A program made the position numbers and the translations under genes. This document shows positions 8,093-29,588 of a stretch of 34,150 nt of DNA, in pieces; position 1 is the stretch's first letter; each line of letters starts with the position of its first letter. The notes under the pieces are model-generated. The model did not search any database and was not told where the DNA came from. It saw only the letters and a list, made by a program, of their open reading frames with translations. The stretch is from a virus (Duplodnaviria; Heunggongvirae; Uroviricota; Caudoviricetes): IMG/VR virus record IMGVR_UViG_2706794688_000010; one strand, given 5' to 3'.

Positions 8093-8487
8093 TATCCCCC
8101 CCTCACAACCCTGACTTGTGAGCGACTAAGTCCGTACGGTTTCAGCAGTGCTATCGCAAGCTGTAAATCGGGTTCAAGCAATGCAGTGCTGTTTGCTGGC
8201 AACTCAGAAAATGATTTCGATACACTGACCCCGTCAGCCGACACGGCTTTACTGATAACAACGCCAGAATCATTTTTCTGCTGAAACAACTTACCGAATG
8301 AGGCAATTCTGGCTGCATATGCTCCCGCAAGTTTTACCTCTTCCGGAATACGGGATGGGTTAATTTTCAGGTTGAAGCCATTAAGCCAGGCATTAGCCAT
8401 TAAAACAGCTTTATTTTTAGCGTTCTCACTCGTCCAGGCGTTCCCAAACGCATTATCAACGTCATCACAGGTCACGTAAGTGATCAT
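8092..8487 (-). CDS. Head-tail connector protein (gp6-like)
   Basis: 131 aa ORF, first gene of the connector block downstream of the capsid gene. Confidence 0.5.
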   Translation of the reverse strand: MITYVTCDDVDNAFGNAWTSENAKNKAVLMANAWLNGFNLKINPSRIPEEVKLAGAYAARIASFGKLFQQKNDSGVVISKAVSADGVSVSKSFSELPANSTALLEPDLQLAIALLKPYGLSRSQVRVVRGG

Positions 8488-8490
8488 GTG

Positions 8491-8667
8491 TTACTCCTGA
8501 GTTTTCCAGCCCATAGCCTTCCAGTTGTCAACTTCATCAGGATGAACATTAGCGATAGTTGGTGCGCCGGGAAACATCTGATAATCGGTCACCATAACCA
8601 CTAACTCAATTTGCGTTTTTTGTGCGGCTTCACGCTGTGCTCTTTGCTCTTTAGTTAATCCGGCCAT
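8491..8667 (-). CDS. Small hypothetical protein (58 aa)
   Basis: Hand-translated MAGLTKEQRAQREAAQKTQIELVVMVTDYQMFPGAPTIANVHPDEVDNWKAMGWKTQE; G-rich RBS before the ATG; not in the ORF track because under 60 aa. Confidence 0.4.
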   Translation of the reverse strand: MAGLTKEQRAQREAAQKTQIELVVMVTDYQMFPGAPTIANVHPDEVDNWKAMGWKTQE

Positions 8668-8709: not shown

Positions 8710-9849
8710 TTAACCAAGAATCAGACAACCATGTGCCGGCTTCACTGATGAAACACCCCATGCCAGTCCAACTTCATAGCGCACCTGGCGATACTGACGA
8801 TACAGTGCAATCTGGAACGTAATCCCTGAAATCGGGTCCGTAACATTCATTACATCATCAGCATTATCGCCACCTTCCGGCATTGCCGGAGTACGGGATG
8901 CCAGCAGAAACGCGTTGCGATCAAACGCCATATTTGCAGTAAAGGCCCCAACAACTGTGATGGCAGTATCATCGGCCAGATCCTGACGCAGTCCGGGCGC
9001 TGCAAGAGTAATCAGATTGCTGGTCGCTGCTGCCACAACATACTGATTCGGATCACCAGCGAACGTAACAATCTGACCTGCAGAAATACTCCCCGAACCA
9101 GTATCAATGGAAATAAGAACATCGCCTTCTTTTTTCTCTCCATTCACGAGATAACCAGTTGCAGCAACCTTTGGCGCTCGTTTCACACCTGCCGAACTGT
9201 GAATATTGAATCCCTCCAGACGCCCCAACACGCCCTCACGCAGTAGCTGTTCAGTGCCGGATTCATTCACTTTAAACAATACAGACTGTTTTCCGCGCAA
9301 ATTAGCAATGGCAGTGGAGCCAAGCACCATCTGCAGATCGGTTGTCGGTGCGCCGTTATCCTCCAGAACCTGACGAGCCAGAGCAGCATCAGAAAGATCA
9401 TCTTTAACACCAAACGGCGTTGTCCCTGCGGTTCCCACGGCGCGGGAAGCACCGAAATACAACGCACCAAGATCAGCCTCAACCTCGTTTGCAAGGGCGC
9501 GAAAAGCCTGCTTGAACTGATCAGCCAGAATGGTGTTGTAAGTCCCTGAAGGGCCAAGAGCCAGTTGTTCTTCACCATTCCATTTAACCGGTGCCATTTT
9601 GGATTTAGTAATTTTTACATCAACAGTGCCAATATTTTGATCACCGGTATTCGGAGCTGACGGCCCCGGTACGATATCTTCGGTTTTCGCCTCAGGCGCA
9701 ACTGGCGCGGTTACCGTCTGATCTTTTGCTGCGGCGTCAGCTTTTGCGTTTTTTGCTACCGCAGGGATAAAACCTACCTGCTCACGGGATACAACATCCA
9801 GGGCGGTATAAATAGTCGGGATCAACCCGGTCAGGGTATTTCCAGCCAT
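8710..9849 (-). CDS. Major capsid protein
   Basis: Large ORF directly downstream of the scaffold gene; likely start MAGNTLTGLIPTIYTAL... at 9849 (the track ORF extends to 9942 but its first 31 codons lack an RBS); strong terminator follows. Confidence 0.75.
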   Translation of the reverse strand: MAGNTLTGLIPTIYTALDVVSREQVGFIPAVAKNAKADAAAKDQTVTAPVAPEAKTEDIVPGPSAPNTGDQNIGTVDVKITKSKMAPVKWNGEEQLALGPSGTYNTILADQFKQAFRALANEVEADLGALYFGASRAVGTAGTTPFGVKDDLSDAALARQVLEDNGAPTTDLQMVLGSTAIANLRGKQSVLFKVNESGTEQLLREGVLGRLEGFNIHSSAGVKRAPKVAATGYLVNGEKKEGDVLISIDTGSGSISAGQIVTFAGDPNQYVVAAATSNLITLAAPGLRQDLADDTAITVVGAFTANMAFDRNAFLLASRTPAMPEGGDNADDVMNVTDPISGITFQIALYRQYRQVRYEVGLAWGVSSVKPAHGCLILG

Positions 9850-17739: not shown

Positions 17740-19042
17740 TTAGGAGCGCCAAAAAAAACCTGAAAACAATATAATAACAGGATAAATTTCAAGGCGACCA
17801 AGAATCATAGCTATGCACATTAAATATTTTGCAATGTCATTAAGCACTCCGAATGACGATGCAGTAGCCCCAAAACCTAATCCCATATTATTAATACATG
17901 CAGCCACTGTTGCAAATGATGTAAGAAAATCATATCCCATACCATTTAACACCAGTATAAAAAACACCGTGAAGAGAGTATAAAGAAAAAAGAAACTCCA
18001 TACAGACCTCATTACACGATCTGTAACTATCTTCCCTCCTACATTTACACTCAACAACGCTCTGGGATGAGAAAGCTGATTTATCTCGTGTTTGCTTTGT
18101 TTGAAAAGTATAAGAAATCGAAGTGACTTAATTCCACCACAGGTTGAACCTATACATCCCCCAAAGAAACTTGACAACAGCAAAAACACTATCGTGTGCG
18201 TGGGCCAGTTTGCATAATCCTGCGTAGCTAAACCATTATCAGTGAGCATGGAGCTGGCAAGAAAAAACGAATGAATAAAACTTCCATGCAAGTCATACAT
18301 ACCTATATGCCAGACCTGGAAAGAGGTAACAATGATCACCCCTAAGGCTATTAACAGAAAGAAACGAAGTTCAATATCTCTGATTAAAGGTTTTATCGTT
18401 TTTCTGCTAATAACAATATACCAAAGAGTGAAGTTGAAAGCCGATAGCAGGGAAAAAGAACCAGCCACCAGCTCAACCAAATAGTTATTAAAATATCCGA
18501 TACTCTCNNNNNNNNNNNNNNNNNNNNNNNNNNNNNNNNNNNNNNNNNNNNNNNNNNNNNNNNNNNNNNNNNNNNNNNNNNNNNNNNNNNNNNNNNNNNN
18601 NAACAATAACTCCTAAACCACCTATAAAATTTAACTGTGACCGATAGTACAAATATGCCCGAGGTAATGAACTAACATCATCAATTACAGTTGCTCCTGT
18701 TGTTGTTATTCCAGAAACCCCTTCAAACAGAGCATCAATGAACGTTAAATTAAGTTCTGAGTCAATCCATAAAGGGAATGCACTAATAACAGAAAACAAA
18801 ATCCAAAACATTACAATTATAATAAACCCATCACGGGTACGTAATTGAATGCCAGATTTCTTAGTTGTATACCACGCTCCGCCACCAATGCAAAAAAATA
18901 TAACGAAAGTTATAAAGAAAACGAACAGGCTTTTTTCTTTATAAAACAATGCTACAACCATTGGTGGCAACATTGAAAGACTATAGAGCCAAACCAGGAA
19001 CCCACACATATGAGTAACAACTCTTACATGAGATGTATTCAT
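17740..19042 (-). CDS. trkG: Trk-type potassium uptake protein TrkG (interrupted by N-run 18508-18601)
   Basis: N-terminus MNTSHVRVVTHMCGFLVWLYSLSMLPPMVVALFYKEKSLF... and C-terminus ...ILGRLEIYPVIILFSGFFWRS match the Rac-prophage TrkG as I recall it; multi-pass membrane protein; AT-rich gene directly downstream of Rz as in Rac. Confidence 0.85.
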
Positions 19043-19179: not shown

Positions 19180-19644
19180 TTACTTTAAACACTGCTCGGT
19201 TATGTATTGCTGAGCACCTTCAAGTTGGGCCTGCATCATTACCAGTCGTTCCCGGAGGGTGAAATAATCCCGTTCAGCGGTGTCTGCCAGTCGGGGGGAG
19301 GCTGCATTATCCACGCCGGAGGCGGTGGTGGCTTCACGCACTGACTGACAGACTGCTTTGATGTGCAACCGACGACGACCAGCGGCAACATCATCACGCA
19401 GAGCATCATTTTCAGCTTTCGCATCAGCTAACTCCTTCGTGTATTTTGCATCGAGCGCAGCAACATCACGCTGACGCATCTGCATGTCAGTAATTGCCGC
19501 GTTCGCCAGCTTCAGTTCTCTGGCATTTTTGTCGCGCTGGGCTTTGTAGGTAATGGCGTTATCACGGTAATGATTAACAGCCCATGACAGGCAGACGATG
19601 ATGCAGATAACCAGAGCGGAGATAATCGCGGTTACTCTGTTCAT
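19180..19644 (-). CDS. Rz: i-spanin Rz
   Basis: [101 protein letters not shown]... is near-identical to lambda Rz. Confidence 0.9.
19239..19424 (-). CDS. Rz1: o-spanin Rz1 (embedded in Rz, +1 frame)
   Basis: [52 protein letters not shown]... lipobox and proline-rich, as lambda Rz1. Confidence 0.85.
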
Positions 19645-20138
19645 TGCTGACCCCACAAACAGATTTCACGCTCAATCTCACGACGAGTCATGAGACCTTT
19701 CCATTGCTTACCGCCAGCATATGTCCAGCGACGTAGCTGATCACATGCGCCTTTGATATCGCCCTGGTTTATTTTGCGAAGAAGCGTCGATGTTCTGAAA
19801 TTACCAGCACCCACGTTGTAAACGAACGAGTAAAGAGCGCCGCGCGTTGTTTCCGGTATATCGACTTTGATGTACGGGTTAATTTGTCTGGCGACAGTGG
19901 CAAGGTCTTTATTCAAGAGTGTTTTGCATTCTGCTTTGGTATACGTTTTACCGAGCATGATGTCTTTTCCTGTATGCCCGTGACATACAGTCCATACACC
20001 AACAATATCTTTGTATGGTATGTAGCTGACACCTTCCAGACCATCGTTACCACTTGGGCCAGTGATTAACACTGATGCTATAGCAATTGCTCCGCCACCA
20101 ATAGCAGCAGCAACGACTTTTCGTAATGATGGAGGCAT
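19641..20138 (-). CDS. R: SAR endolysin (phage 21 R-type lysozyme)
   Basis: 165 aa; N-terminal signal-anchor-release segment [19 protein letters not shown] followed by a lysozyme domain; matches my recollection of R21. Confidence 0.85.
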
Positions 20139-20353
20139 TATTCACCTCTCGCAGCCTTGCGCTTATCTTCTTTAATCTTGAAATAAAGGTTTGTCAGGTA
20201 CGTCAGCAGGCCAAATACCAGACTACCCAGCACACCGATTGCAGCCCACTGTGACGGAGTTACTCTATCGAGCAACTGTAAAAACCAGTAGCCAGCACTG
20301 CCTGCGGAGGTGCCGTAGGCAATGCCTGTTGAAATTTTGTCCATGGATTTCAT
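20138..20353 (-). CDS. S: Pinholin (phage 21 S-type holin, dual-start MKSMDK)
   Basis: 71 aa from the ATG at 20353 (GGAGGTGA RBS): [71 protein letters not shown], two TMDs and dual start as in S21. Confidence 0.85.
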
Positions 20354-20454
20354 AGCCTCACCTCCGCACGGAACGGATGGCATAGTTATTATGTGTAGGC
20401 TTTCAGACACATCAATCAGAGCCTTAATTGATATATATGCTGGAGACGATGCAA

Positions 20455-20479
20455 TATAAAAAGCTCGCCGTAGCGAGCT
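20455..20479 (-). terminator. Rho-independent terminator after the lipoprotein genes
   Basis: Minus strand AGCTCGC-TACG-GCGAGCT followed by TTTTTATATTGC; between the lipoprotein gene stop and S. Confidence 0.6.
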
Positions 20480-20604
20480 AATAAAATGTATTTCTCTGAT
20501 ATTATGTTTATTTGTATTAGCTCAGACTTGACATCACAGGTTTCGTATATAGAACATCATCAAATCTGTCAGTTTGCTATGAATGAGATATAGTAATTGA
20601 AGAG

Positions 20605-21000
20605 CTAACCTCGCATGTCAAAGCCAGATTTCTGAAAATCTCTGTAGACTTCCGGATTGTTGAAGGCCGGAAATTTGGCTTTATGAGCTGCGGACTTTAT
20701 CGCTTCGCAATAGGCTTTATCACCGTTACTGGTAGATATTTTTAACGCCGTGCCATCCTGAGAGAATTCCATATGCAACCTGCATTTTTTCCCTTTCCAG
20801 TTATGCGGCTCATCAAGTTTGGCATTAATTGCAGCTCTGATTCCCCGCGCTTGCGCCCCCCATTCATCCTGATCATCCCAGCGTCCTGAACTGCAACTAC
20901 CTGTAGCAGTAGTTTTGTGGCAATCTGAAGGGTGTAAAGGTGTGCATCCCGCAACAAAACCGACCCAAAAAGTCAACATAACGATTTTCTTTAATCCCAC
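20605..21000 (-). CDS. Lipoprotein with TolA C-terminal domain (domain III)-like region, copy 2
   Basis: GTG start with GAGGAG RBS; signal peptide plus lipobox (…VGFVAGC); C-terminal ...GKKCRLHMEFSQDGTALKIS...GDKAYCEAIKSAAHKAKFPAFNNPEVYRDFQKSGFDMRG parallels the other copy. Confidence 0.6.
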   Translation of the reverse strand: MGLKKIVMLTFWVGFVAGCTPLHPSDCHKTTATGSCSSGRWDDQDEWGAQARGIRAAINAKLDEPHNWKGKKCRLHMEFSQDGTALKISTSNGDKAYCEAIKSAAHKAKFPAFNNPEVYRDFQKSGFDMRG

Positions 21001-21150
21001 TTCTTGCTCCTCAATCCATTAAAATCTCAGCAATAGTAGTTGTTACGTCCGCCACTGGCTCAGAGCTGACTATCCGCTAAATTTAGCTCAGTGCCGTAGC
21101 TGTGTCAGAACAAACCTAAGCCGAAACCGTTTATTACAAAACAATAAATA

Positions 21151-21579
21151 TCAGGGTTTAAAATCCAGCACCCCATTTTGAAATACTTTATATACTTCCG
21201 GCGAAGGGGGGGCAGGTATATCAGCATTCTTTATCGCATTCATCGCTTCACGACATAAATCGAGGTCTCCACTTTCTCTTTTAACCTCCAGTAGAAGGCC
21301 ATTCGGGGCCATATGCATTCTCAGTGTACACTCTTTTCCTGAATACTTACTCGCATCCCCGAACTGTTTTTCGATGGCGCTCTTGATTTGATGGGCATAC
21401 AGACGGATATCCTCACTAACATCAGAAGTACGTTCAGATGAACTCACATACTGTGTCTCTATTGCTTTATCGGAGTAATATGATGTACGGTCATGATAAT
21501 TTGTCGATACAGCATCAGTGCACCCGATAATAATCCCACTAATAATCAACGTAAGAATTGATGCGCTACGAAAACCCAT
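21151..21579 (-). CDS. Lipoprotein with TolA C-terminal domain (domain III)-like region, copy 1
   Basis: Signal peptide plus lipobox (…IISGIIIGC); C-terminal HQIKSAIEKQFGDASKYSGKECTLRMHMAPNGLLLEVKRESGDLDLCREAMNAIKNADIPAPPSPEVYKVFQNGVLDFKP closely resembles my recollection of the E. coli TolA C-terminus (…GKTCTLRIKLAPDGMLL…PPSQAVYEVFKNAPLDFKP). Confidence 0.7.
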   Translation of the reverse strand: MGFRSASILTLIISGIIIGCTDAVSTNYHDRTSYYSDKAIETQYVSSSERTSDVSEDIRLYAHQIKSAIEKQFGDASKYSGKECTLRMHMAPNGLLLEVKRESGDLDLCREAMNAIKNADIPAPPSPEVYKVFQNGVLDFKP

Positions 21580-22164
21580 TTTTCCTCACATATGTCATAT
21601 AGTAAAGGATTATATATACCGTTGTTTTGGACGCTCAAACAGCGAATCAGATCAAATAAAACGCACATTTGTTAACATTTACACAAAGTCTGCGTGGGAT
21701 ATTCTGAAAGAATATCCATAATGTGGAGAGAATCTATTGAAGTGCATGGTGCCGGGTGCCTCCCGGTGAACAAAATGTTCGTGATACCTGTCGGCGACAG
21801 AAAAGGTTAATGGTATCACCCCACCGCACAGGGGGATTCACCATGCAGGAGTTTTCTTAGCAAACTCACTGCGCGCCCGGCAACTCCCAACCACATAAAA
21901 TGCGGAGTTTGTGGCATTTATGCATATAACTCGCAGGAATTATCTTAAAAAACTGATGTCGATCCGGATTAAAAAGAAGCAGGTCATCATCAGATGACTG
22001 GAAAAAAGGAAAACAAAAAATACTCATCATACAGTTTTGATTGCAGGGATGAGCCTGCTATGCACAATATGCAGAATATAAGCAAGATAAAAATATGCAG
22101 GCATATTATTTCGGATCTTGTTATTAACACAACCTTTTTAATAATCATTTGGCATACAATAAAC

Positions 22165-22196
22165 CAGCCCAAAAAGAACCGCCTAAACAGGCGGTT
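22165..22196 (-). terminator. Intrinsic terminator (tR'-like position downstream of the Q-like gene)
   Basis: Perfect 7-bp stem AACCGCC-TGTTTA-GGCGGTT followed on the minus strand by CTTTTTGGG. Confidence 0.6.
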
Positions 22197-22646
22197 GGTC
22201 AATACAAAGGATGCTTCGTCTTTATTATAGTAATCTGAGGCGTCGGGTGTCTTGTATCAGACAACATATTGTCCCGCTAAACAGCGAATTACAAACCACC
22301 CTNNNNNNNNNNNNNNNNNNNNNNNNNNNNNNNNNNNNNNNNNNNNNNNNNNNNNNNNNNNNNNNNNNNNNNNNNNNNNNNNNNNNNNNNNNNNNNNNNN
22401 NNNNNNNNNNNNNNNNNNNNNNNNNNNNNNNNNNNNNNNNNNNNNNNNNNNNNNNNNNNNNNNNNNNNNNNNNNNNNNNNNNNNNNNNNNNNNNNNNNNN
22501 NNNNNNNNNNNNNNNNNNNNNNNNNNNNNNNNNNNNNNNNNNNNNNNNNNNNNNNNNNNNNNNNNNNNNNNNNNNNNNNNNNCAATCCGCCTCGCGATAC
22601 AGCTTTGCGAAGCATAGCAAAATTGAAGCAGTTTATACGTAAGAAA

Positions 22647-22984: not shown

Positions 22985-23234
22985 NNNNNNNNNNNNNNNN
23001 NNNNNNNNNNNNNNNNNNNNNNNNNNNNNNNNNNNNNNNNNNNNNNNNNNNNNNNNNNNNNNNNNNNNNNNNNNNNNNNNNNNNNNNNNNNNNNNNNNNN
23101 NNNNNNNNNNNNNNNNNNNNNNNNNNNNNNNNNNNNNNNNNNNNNNNNNNNNNNNNNNNNNNNNNNNNNNNNNNNNNNNNNNNNNNNNNNNNNNNNNNNN
23201 NNNNNNNNNNNNNNNNNNNNNNNNNNNNNNNNNN

Positions 23235-24078: not shown

Positions 24079-24881
24079 TTCTCAATCTCTCGATGGCGCA
24101 GCGCAGCAGATGCCAGTTGTTCAGGCTGACGAATAAAGTATAAATAAACTGGCTATGGTGTAAAGCCCCACATAGCATGAACAAACACTACATATCAAAT
24201 AGCTGGTACAAGGATAGAAATACGACACTTATTATTAAAANNNNNNNNNNNNNNNNNNNNNNNNNNNNNNNNNNNNNNNNNNNNNNNNNNNNNNNNNNNN
24301 NNNNNNNNNNNNNNNNNNNNNNNNNNNNNNNNNNNNNNNNNNNNNNNNNNNNNNNNNNNNNNNNNNNNNNNNNNNNNNNNNNNNNNNNNNNNNNNNNNNN
24401 NNNNNNNNNNNNNNNNNNNNNNNNNNNNNNNNNNNNNNNNNNNNNNNNNNNNNNNNNNNNNNNNNNNNNNNNNNNNNNNNNNNNNNNNNNNNNNNNNNNN
24501 NNNNNNNNNNACTCAAGTCATTAACATTTGATAAGATATATCTAAAAGGACGCCTTTACATTATTTATGCGTATATAATTTATTTATATACACAGTAAAG
24601 GTATCCTGGGAAAATATTTATCGTTAAAAAATACATCATAAATAATTAAGCTGAAATTTCAGAACACAACTAATACACACAATAAGGTTCAGTAACAGTA
24701 ATCTATGTGGACTACATCGAGATTTTTTGATTAAACTTTAATAACTTATTCCTAACACACAGAATGCATAAACTAAAAGTAAAACAAATAGTTATACGAA
24801 AAACAACCATATTTATTCTATCTTCTCCTCTAATCAACATATCAATTATGTGTTTCATAACAGCTTGACATAACCCTCCAA

Positions 24882-29338: not shown

Positions 29339-29588
29339 NNNNNNNNNNNNNNNNNNNNNNNNNNNNNNNNNNNNNNNNNNNNNNNNNNNNNNNNNNNNNN
29401 NNNNNNNNNNNNNNNNNNNNNNNNNNNNNNNNNNNNNNNNNNNNNNNNNNNNNNNNNNNNNNNNNNNNNNNNNNNNNNNNNNNNNNNNNNNNNNNNNNNN
29501 NNNNNNNNNNNNNNNNNNNNNNNNNNNNNNNNNNNNNNNNNNNNNNNNNNNNNNNNNNNNNNNNNNNNNNNNNNNNNNNNNNNNNNNN

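Follow-up and report, generated by a model that had tools for sequence, protein, structure and literature searches.

Two lipoproteins with a TolA C-terminal domain in the late region of a lambdoid prophage as possible competitive mimics of the host TolA hub

Why does a prophage carry, directly in front of its lysis genes, two genes for small proteins that resemble the end of a host envelope protein? The question is raised by a stretch of viral DNA of 34,150 nucleotides (IMG/VR virus record IMGVR_UViG_2706794688_000010, Caudoviricetes; the whole stretch is called the window here). An earlier note, made from the letters alone, had described a tandem pair of phage-encoded, membrane-anchored lipoproteins at positions 20455 to 21579, each with a module like TolA's C-terminal domain (domain III, TolAIII), and had proposed that they could act as decoys. 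Two open reading frames (ORFs), named copy 1 and copy 2 for easy description, do lie at these positions, with the correction that both genes are on the minus strand. Their parts are as follows.

21151..21579 (-): copy 1, a TolAIII lipoprotein of 142 amino acids, ATG start 5 nucleotides after a GAGGA Shine-Dalgarno sequence
Within copy 1: signal peptide and lipobox, residues 1-20 (Cys20 at 21522..21520); disordered tether, residues ~21-53; TolA domain III, residues 54-142
20605..21000 (-): copy 2, a TolAIII lipoprotein of 131 amino acids, GTG start 7 nucleotides after a GAGGA Shine-Dalgarno sequence
Within copy 2: signal peptide and lipobox, residues 1-19 (Cys19 at 20946..20944); C-x8-C tether, residues 20-45; TolA domain III, residues 46-131

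Domain, anchor and ligand-binding edges of the two proteins

Both copies are members of the TolA C-terminal domain family PF06519 by profile score, fold and cysteine pair. Copy 1 scores 82.6 bits (E 2.4e-23) and copy 2 scores 54.6 bits (E 1.3e-14), both above Pfam's gathering cut-off of 25 bits. E. coli TolA 334-421 aligns with copy 1 over 88 residues without a gap at 59% identity, the alignment ending at TolA's own last residue, and the TolAIII chains 1S62, 3QDP, 2X9A and 1TOL of the Protein Data Bank (PDB) match copy 1 at E ~5e-28. Copy 2 is much less TolA-like, with 31% identity to TolAIII, and the likeness to TolA claimed at first holds in full for copy 1 only. The two proteins are 29% identical to each other (E 2e-18), which bears out their paralogy, and the C-terminal peptide quoted in the earlier note is the exact C-terminus of copy 1. 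In the AlphaFold2 models, the N-terminal parts are disordered (predicted local distance difference test, pLDDT, <50 for residues 1-53 of copy 1 and 1-39 of copy 2) and are followed in each copy by a folded domain of pLDDT ~90 with the order helix-helix-strand-strand-helix-helix-strand. Foldseek searches with these models returned TolAIII (3QDP, 2X9A, 1TOL) as the best matches, with target-normalised template modelling (TM) scores of 0.84-0.94 and root-mean-square deviations of 0.6-1.7 Å. The putative disulfide cysteines, which correspond to C363/C388 of E. coli TolA, align ungapped in copy 1, copy 2 and two homologues on Klebsiella plasmids described below. Collectively, alignment and structure prediction agree on homology to TolA domain III, and a resemblance far beyond chance is confirmed.

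The N-termini follow the plan of bacterial lipoproteins. Copy 1 begins with MGFRSASILTLIISGIIIGC followed by TD and copy 2 with MGLKKIVMLTFWVGFVAGC followed by TP; each has a basic n-region, a hydrophobic h-region and a lipobox (IIGC and VAGC, respectively, under the pattern [LVI][ASTVI][GAS]C) with Thr at position +2. The lipobox is conserved throughout the copy-1 and copy-2 families. By these sequence rules both copies are lipoproteins, presumably lipidated at the lipobox cysteine, and since Thr rather than Asp follows that cysteine, the +2 rule predicts Lol-dependent sorting to the outer membrane. The lipoprotein architecture proposed earlier, a signal sequence and a lipobox in both copies, is what we find; the membrane anchor is likewise predicted, with the qualification that it points to the outer and not the inner membrane.

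Neither protein is TolA. The transmembrane domain I and the helical domain II are absent from both copies when these are compared, at 142 and 131 amino acids, with the full-length NCBIfam TolA models, which are matched via their last ~100 positions only (profile 293-386 of 387). NF007065 scores 107.8 for copy 1 and 53.7 for copy 2 against a cut-off of 213, and TIGR02794 is passed by copy 1 alone (75.6 vs 59.45), through its C-terminal part only. Furthermore, both genes lie outside the tol-pal operon, between a phage Q-like gene and the holin gene. The RefSeq annotation of the identical E. coli locus masks the lipoprotein nature of both copies. On this locus (L002, pair at 8206-8580 and 8752-9012), the Prokaryotic Genome Annotation Pipeline (PGAP) labels copy 1 'tolA, incomplete; missing N-terminus' and marks it as a pseudogene, because the full-length TolA model matches just the C-terminal domain. 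Copy 2 is started there at an internal Met, by which the basic n-region of the signal peptide is lost; the GTG start with its GAGGA Shine-Dalgarno sequence restores a normal lipoprotein signal peptide. RefSeq already uses the name 'cell envelope integrity TolA C-terminal domain-containing protein', and given this name the domain assignment itself is not new.

Pairwise Nei-Gojobori estimates of the ratio of non-synonymous to synonymous substitution rates (dN/dS) are 0.26-0.39 for copy 1 (0.09-0.35 for the domain alone) and 0.04-0.14 for copy 2 at dS 0.5-1.35, with dS ranging from 0.17 to 1.35 over all computed pairs of the two copies. As these ratios are well below 1, both genes are functional and under purifying selection, the copy-2 family strongly so.

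Two edges of TolAIII are mapped as ligand sites. The beta2 edge, residues 375-380 with K368, K379 and K396, is bound by colicin A (PMC3365938), and the beta3 edge, residues 415-420, receives the TolB N-terminus, g3p-N1 and colicin N by strand addition (PMC4339652; review PMC7391070). Binding at beta3 is abolished by D418P or K420P with a full tol phenotype (PMC4339652), and the affinity of TolA for TolB is weak, 40 µM (PMC4339652, PMC7391070). In the ungapped comparison, copy 1 reads LLEVKR for LLDIKP at beta2, keeps K379 and K396, and reads VLDFKP for PLDFKP at beta3; it would thus be a near-complete surface mimic of host TolAIII, uncoupled from the TolQR motor. Copy 2 is diverged at both mapped edges, with ALKIST at beta2, loss of K368, K379 and K396, and GFDMRG at beta3. 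The two Klebsiella plasmid proteins keep LDFR at beta3 and not the colicin A site.

Copy 2 is further distinguished by its tether (window 20866-20943 (-), residues 20-45), which reads PLHPS-C-HKTTATGS-C-SSGRWDDQDEWG. It contains an invariant C-x8-C pair, kept in the representatives of other 50%-identity clusters, and a GRWDDQDEWG-like stretch; AlphaFold predicts no structure for it. The median dN/dS of the tether is 0.10 against 0.115 for the whole gene, an equal constraint that would not be expected of a passive linker. Mimicry of a TolB box was considered for SSGRWDDQDEWG by likening it to the two-Trp TolB-binding epitope of colicins E9/A, DG[ST]GWSSE...PWG, and was rejected as a claim, since the D, S, W register is unmatched and the Trp spacing is off by one; the likeness is of use as a lead only.

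Genomic setting and distribution

The two genes are best explained as late-region cargo of a lambdoid prophage (a 'moron' cassette). On the minus strand the order is Q-like gene, pR'/tR', STnc100 element, promoter-like site, copy 1, spacer, copy 2, terminator and then the genes for holin, endolysin and Rz; as the identical locus in E. coli shows, the Q-like gene upstream is of the DUF1133 type. The features around the two genes are the following.

22224..22253 (-): late promoter resembling pR', AAGACA-18-TATAAT, 10/12 consensus positions, downstream of the Q-type antiterminator gene; presumptive pR'
22177..22196 (-): tR'-like intrinsic terminator from the terminator scan, an 8-bp stem then a T run, its sequence conserved in the related prophage L128
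21690..21876 (-): STnc100-family element upstream of copy 1 (Rfam RF02076, 86.6 bits vs gathering 47)
21609..21638 (-): sigma-70-like promoter candidate of copy 1, TTGAGC-18-TATAAT, 10/12; L128 differs by one -10 base
21001..21150 (-): intergenic spacer of 150 bp with a weak promoter-like site (21108..21080) and the copy-2 GAGGA Shine-Dalgarno sequence
20462..20479 (-): cassette-end intrinsic terminator between copy 2 and the holin gene, a 7-bp stem followed by UUUUU
20138..20410 (-): holin gene, essD-like, an ORF and the first lysis-cassette gene; RefSeq lists essD, rrrD and a lysis protein on the identical locus
19641..20138 (-): endolysin, an ORF downstream of the holin gene
19180..19656 (-): Rz, likewise an ORF downstream of the holin gene

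The cassette is therefore found where the earlier note had put it, between the pR'/tR'-like element and the holin gene (S), and the separate terminator claimed for the pair stands as well (20479..20462, -13 kcal/mol, z -3.25). The terminator scan detected none between copies 1 and 2, and the evidence for the one after copy 2 is solid. For a promoter of the cassette's own the evidence is a weak consensus match: the scan gave 9 promoter-like sites in the region where shuffled sequence leads one to expect 5.7 ± 2.3, so there is no enrichment. As in other cargo genes, the pair has its own terminator and is variably present among related prophages.

STnc100 is a repeated element of ~200 nucleotides that recurs between the Q and holin genes of lambdoid prophages. 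One locus of a related prophage can have as many as four copies, which flank the copy-1 gene on either side (L127 2589-2802, 4704-4877, 5599-5803, 5854-6061; L128 4704-4877, 5599-5803, 5854-6061); in related prophages, one lies upstream of the copy-1 gene and two lie downstream of it, at the place that copy 2 takes in this window. The element may mark junctions of cargo-gene exchange rather than a single small RNA gene. The window also contains six runs of N of 94-280 bases (611-860, 18508-18601, 22303-22582, 22985-23234, 24241-24510, 29339-29588), which mask several stretches, among them a portion of the Q-like gene's region immediately upstream of the cassette; ORFs crossing them are unreliable.

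The copy-1 type belongs to prophages. Its named members are almost all from E. coli, and it always lies between an antiterminator gene and a holin gene, in several different lambdoid prophages. The 1.3-kb cassette is present at ≥99% identity in 774 of 5426 complete E. coli genomes (~14%), and the pair is also found in the sequenced phage mEp460_ev081, the sole match when 50,697 phage genomes were searched with copy 1 by tblastn; no other phage homologue was found there. IMG/VR holds 149 related loci, the best 80 of which encode a protein that matches copy 1 at 99-100% identity; these 80 are near-identical E. coli prophage copies and add no diversity. Variants of copy 1 with 91% and 66% identity occupy the same Q-to-holin slot without copy 2 in related prophages. 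A 142-amino-acid variant of copy 1 (P0023) combines the N-terminal half of the 66% type with a C-terminal domain identical to that of the window copy, which suggests recombination within the gene, between the signal peptide plus tether and the domain. Immediately upstream of the 66% variant lie an AraC-family regulator gene (HTH_18) and tRNA genes (L123-L126, 3826-4721; the tRNA genes were checked in L124 and L125 only), and in L125 only a DUF1737-SASA esterase gene lies downstream of the lipoprotein gene.

The copy-2 type reaches much further. A total of 370 clusters at 90% identity pass E 0.001, and in the 120 of these that were listed identity is 78-99%, with members from Citrobacter, Enterobacter, Serratia, Raoultella and Klebsiella. 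The family extends over ~30 Enterobacterales species as a single chromosomal gene or on plasmids. Orthologues at roughly 88% identity are present on ~600 F- and I-type plasmids of E. coli and Shigella: on IncF plasmids, in the leading region after psiB-psiA-hok, on pO157-sized plasmids with toxB; on IncI plasmids, directly after the relaxase gene. The wording 'phage-encoded' is thus too narrow for copy 2, and the two copies have different histories. The chromosomal contexts of copy 2 vary. In Enterobacter the orthologue has a housekeeping context. In Serratia marcescens (L009-L012, 8001-10736) it adjoins a GmrSD_N and HEPN (RiboL-PSP) gene pair downstream of nrdD-nrdG, a defence-like context. 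Clustering of all flanking ORFs at 30 species-level loci found no partner conserved beyond genus level, and a conserved partner gene for copy 2 was ruled out on this basis.

Two further arrangements were found on Klebsiella plasmids. On 10-kb Col plasmids, a TolAIII lipoprotein gene (lipobox LTAC followed by K) is succeeded by a gene for a TonB C-terminal domain with a signal peptide, beside a cloacin operon. In the K. pneumoniae ColRNAI plasmid p1_090045 (L004, 3687-4420), the lipoprotein ends in ...NAPLDFRP, its gene overlaps the TonB C-terminal domain gene (PF03544, 42.5 bits) by 4 nucleotides, and the pair, which covers both bacteriocin import hubs, adjoins the cloacin, immunity and lysis operon. 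On an MPF_I conjugative plasmid (L131, 5229-6258), a thioredoxin-fold gene (Thioredoxin_2/DsbA-like) lies directly before a TolAIII lipoprotein gene (ITAC followed by S); its product may be a dedicated oxidoreductase for the TolAIII disulfide.

A profile search of 1.84 billion cluster representatives gave 589 matches. Among the best 150, 95 are at most 190 amino acids long, and 61 of these 95 have a lipobox, none with Asp at +2. The named members looked up are all from Enterobacterales, and four separate lineages have the lipoprotein plus TolAIII design in common. By sequence, stand-alone TolAIII lipoproteins form a large, diverse and largely mobile family.

Competitive mimicry and the alternatives

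We consider it likely that the two proteins act as competitive mimics of TolAIII at the outer membrane. Each copy would be exported and lipidated at the lipobox cysteine. Because domain I, the TolQ/TolR-coupled anchor, and domain II are absent, TolAIII ligands would be bound and neither pulled on nor imported, and the lipoprotein would be a competitor stationed where invaders first reach the periplasm. Copy 1 would offer the beta3 edge (to the TolB N-terminus, g3p-N1 of Ff/If1 and colicin N) and most of the beta2 edge (to colicin A). Copy 2, with both edges changed and a disulfide-type C-x8-C tether added, probably serves another set of ligands. As a result, lysogens and carriers of the plasmid or chromosomal homologues would tolerate Tol-dependent bacteriocins and exclude TolA-dependent filamentous phages, with some disturbance of TolB-Pal as a side effect. 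The decoy idea of the earlier note fits, since domains I and II are absent, the edges of copy 1 are kept, the copies differ at these edges, and periplasmic TolAIII makes the outer membrane leaky.

Precedents exist for both sides of this mechanism. In the 1993 work of Levengood-Freyermuth, Click and Webster, periplasmic TolAIII reportedly gave tolerance to colicins E1, E2, E3 and A, not to the TonB-dependent colicin D; leakage and deoxycholate sensitivity are said to have been seen as well. TolAIII sent to the periplasm with a signal peptide is dominant-negative and makes E. coli leak periplasmic proteins (PMC6195910). When periplasmic g3p-N1 sequesters TolA, cells resist colicin A and phage uptake drops by 4 logs (PMC10424213).

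Whether the genes are selected because their carriers tolerate Tol-dependent bacteriocins and keep out TolA-dependent filamentous phages is a narrower matter, and we would put this benefit at an even chance, reasoning from sequence and context. Three observations favour it: a TolAIII lipoprotein is paired with a TonB C-terminal domain next to a bacteriocin operon, the copy-2 family persists on chromosomes as a gene on its own, and members reside on F- and I-type plasmids, whose pili are the receptors of the TolA-dependent Ff and If1 phages.

Several points weigh against competitive mimicry or this benefit. TolB uses the same beta3 edge of TolA, so a tethered mimic should disturb Tol-Pal, and the disturbance could be what the mimic is really for or else a serious burden. 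In copy 2 the colicin A lysines are gone and beta3 is changed, and its ligands may be unrelated to colicins or phages; its tether is as constrained as the domain, and a simple decoy needs none of that. The cassette's own candidate promoter, on which expression in the lysogen would depend, is a consensus match. It is also not obvious that Ff phages would target many of the carriers, F-minus lysogens and Enterobacter chromosomes among them. PADLOC gave no match and has no model for these proteins, and PHROGs matched phrog_5772 only, annotated 'unknown function'. No study of binding, localisation or phenotype of these TolAIII lipoproteins was found in the literature. In the full text searched, the mentions of TolA that we met were incidental (chromosomal tolA or unrelated 'TolA' annotations); neither the lipoprotein plus TolAIII design nor its spread over prophages, plasmids and chromosomes was described, and the same holds for the edge conservation of copy 1, the divergence of copy 2, the TolAIII/TonB C-terminal domain pairing and any function.

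A broader proposal, which we put forward tentatively and hold to be doubtful as it stands, is that import-hub copies anchored in the outer membrane make up a class of 'translocation-step' immunity that is widespread and unrecognised. Tol- and Ton-dependent bacteriocins and pilus-specific filamentous phages would be caught by it ahead of the host's energised machinery. Such a class would include these TolAIII lipoproteins and the TolAIII/TonB C-terminal domain pair of the Klebsiella Col plasmids, and would be carried by prophages, conjugative and Col plasmids and chromosomal islets; the paralogues would be tuned to different ligands, the tether of copy 2 being a second binding module.

The shared beta3 edge also allows a different purpose, namely deliberate weakening of Tol-Pal, the main rival reading, which we regard as unlikely. 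Here the TolB N-terminus would be bound at the outer membrane and TolA kept from stripping TolB off Pal, and the outer membrane would be loosened late, when Q-antiterminated transcription from pR' reads through the cassette, with easier lysis, more vesicles, or easier release of virions or periplasmic cargo as the outcome. With pR'/tR' and the holin gene as its direct flanks, the cassette is expected to be strongly co-transcribed with the lysis genes, copy 1 has the exact LDFKP beta3 edge used by TolB (PMC4339652), the leakiness caused by periplasmic TolAIII is of the expected kind (PMC6195910), and a tether in Pal's own leaflet would raise the local concentration and could offset the 40 µM affinity. 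However, the copy-2 family is strongly conserved in ~30 Enterobacterales species and on plasmids without lysis genes nearby, where a constitutive poison would be costly; an own terminator and a promoter-like site are typical of genes expressed in the lysogen; and most lambdoid phages lyse without such genes, a homologue being present in 1 of 50,697 phage records. Tolerance through mimicry and weakening of Tol-Pal are compatible, as low expression in the lysogen could confer tolerance and high late expression leakiness.

Another envelope role, mostly for copy 2, is distinctly improbable. The TolAIII/TonB-C fold would then be an adaptor working by beta-strand augmentation, with the C-x8-C tether as a second module, and its ligand could be, for example, some other protein of the outer membrane or periplasm, or else a component of the conjugation machinery or of a phage. 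Such a role would suit a protein just 31% identical to TolAIII and changed at both mapped edges, with a tether as constrained as the whole gene (dN/dS 0.10) whose C-x8-C is kept across 50%-identity clusters; orthologues of copy 2 border the relaxase gene of IncI plasmids or lie in the leading region of IncF plasmids, and the Klebsiella MPF_I lipoprotein is paired with a thioredoxin-fold protein, both of which point the same way. Yet no conserved neighbour hints at another ligand, the fold match is specific to TolAIII and not to TonB or other adaptors, and a partner that is a TonB C-terminal domain, with a bacteriocin operon alongside, indicates the import hubs.

Finally, inert remnants of a captured tolA gene, as the PGAP label of copy 1 would have it, are improbable in the extreme, and decay into pseudogenes is ruled out by dN/dS and architecture: both ORFs are unbroken, start behind strong Shine-Dalgarno sequences and have gained new signal peptides and lipoboxes, the ratios stay well below 1 over the whole range of dS, at least 99% identical copies are kept in the 774 E. 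coli genomes, four separate lineages show one design, and the pseudogene flag itself arises from a full-length model that meets the C-terminal domain only.

Known systems and meaning for the carriers

Set beside TolA itself, the copies share the fold, the disulfide cysteines and, in copy 1 at 59% identity, largely kept ligand edges. They differ in having a lipoprotein signal peptide and a short disordered tether instead of domains I and II, in lying outside the tol-pal operon, and in a predicted anchor in the outer rather than the inner membrane that would not be energised by TolQR. The closest experimental likeness is recombinant periplasmic TolAIII (Levengood-Freyermuth; Wan and Baneyx 1998), where an isolated TolAIII in the periplasm competes with native TolA. 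That protein is a soluble, overproduced laboratory construct, whereas the copies described here are natural, predicted to be lipid-anchored, mobile and diverged, and come as two paralogues.

In the logic of cargo genes, the copies resemble Cor (phi80, N15, HK022 and mEp phages), Llp (T5) and TraT (F), which are outer-membrane lipoproteins of mobile elements. Cor, Llp and TraT protect their carrier from incoming phages, and Cor and Llp also from colicin M. None of the three has a sequence relationship to copies 1 and 2, and Cor and Llp block the surface receptor FhuA, whereas the copies would intercept periplasmic translocation by imitating a host hub. With these differences, we rate copies 1 and 2 as candidate carrier-protecting envelope lipoproteins of mobile elements, acting through hub imitation. 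The slot is also that of other cargo genes between Q and S of lambdoid prophages, of which stx is an example: downstream of pR'/tR', upstream of the holin gene, with an own terminator and variable presence. Here, rather than a toxin or porin, the slot holds an envelope lipoprotein that mimics a protein of the host. Superinfection immunity by pIII-N1 of Ff phages is likewise aimed at the TolAIII-g3p interface and makes cells resistant to colicin A as well as to phage (PMC10424213), with the roles reversed: there the ligand of the invader saturates host TolA, and here a copy of TolAIII would saturate the ligand of the invader.

Loss of receptors, tol mutations and immunity proteins are the usual explanations of resistance to colicins and filamentous phages. 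If the TolA hub does have decoys that can be transferred, these would be a separate layer, by which broad tolerance at the translocation step is gained in one step with a prophage or plasmid. The prevalence of the pair in ~14% of complete E. coli genomes, and of copy 2 on ~600 plasmids, could affect bacteriocin competition in the gut. It could also affect the use of colicins and engineered filamentous phages as antimicrobials, outer-membrane permeability and vesicle production. Furthermore, these natural TolAIII variants, tuned by evolution, may let work on Tol-Pal separate the binding of TolB from the binding of invaders.

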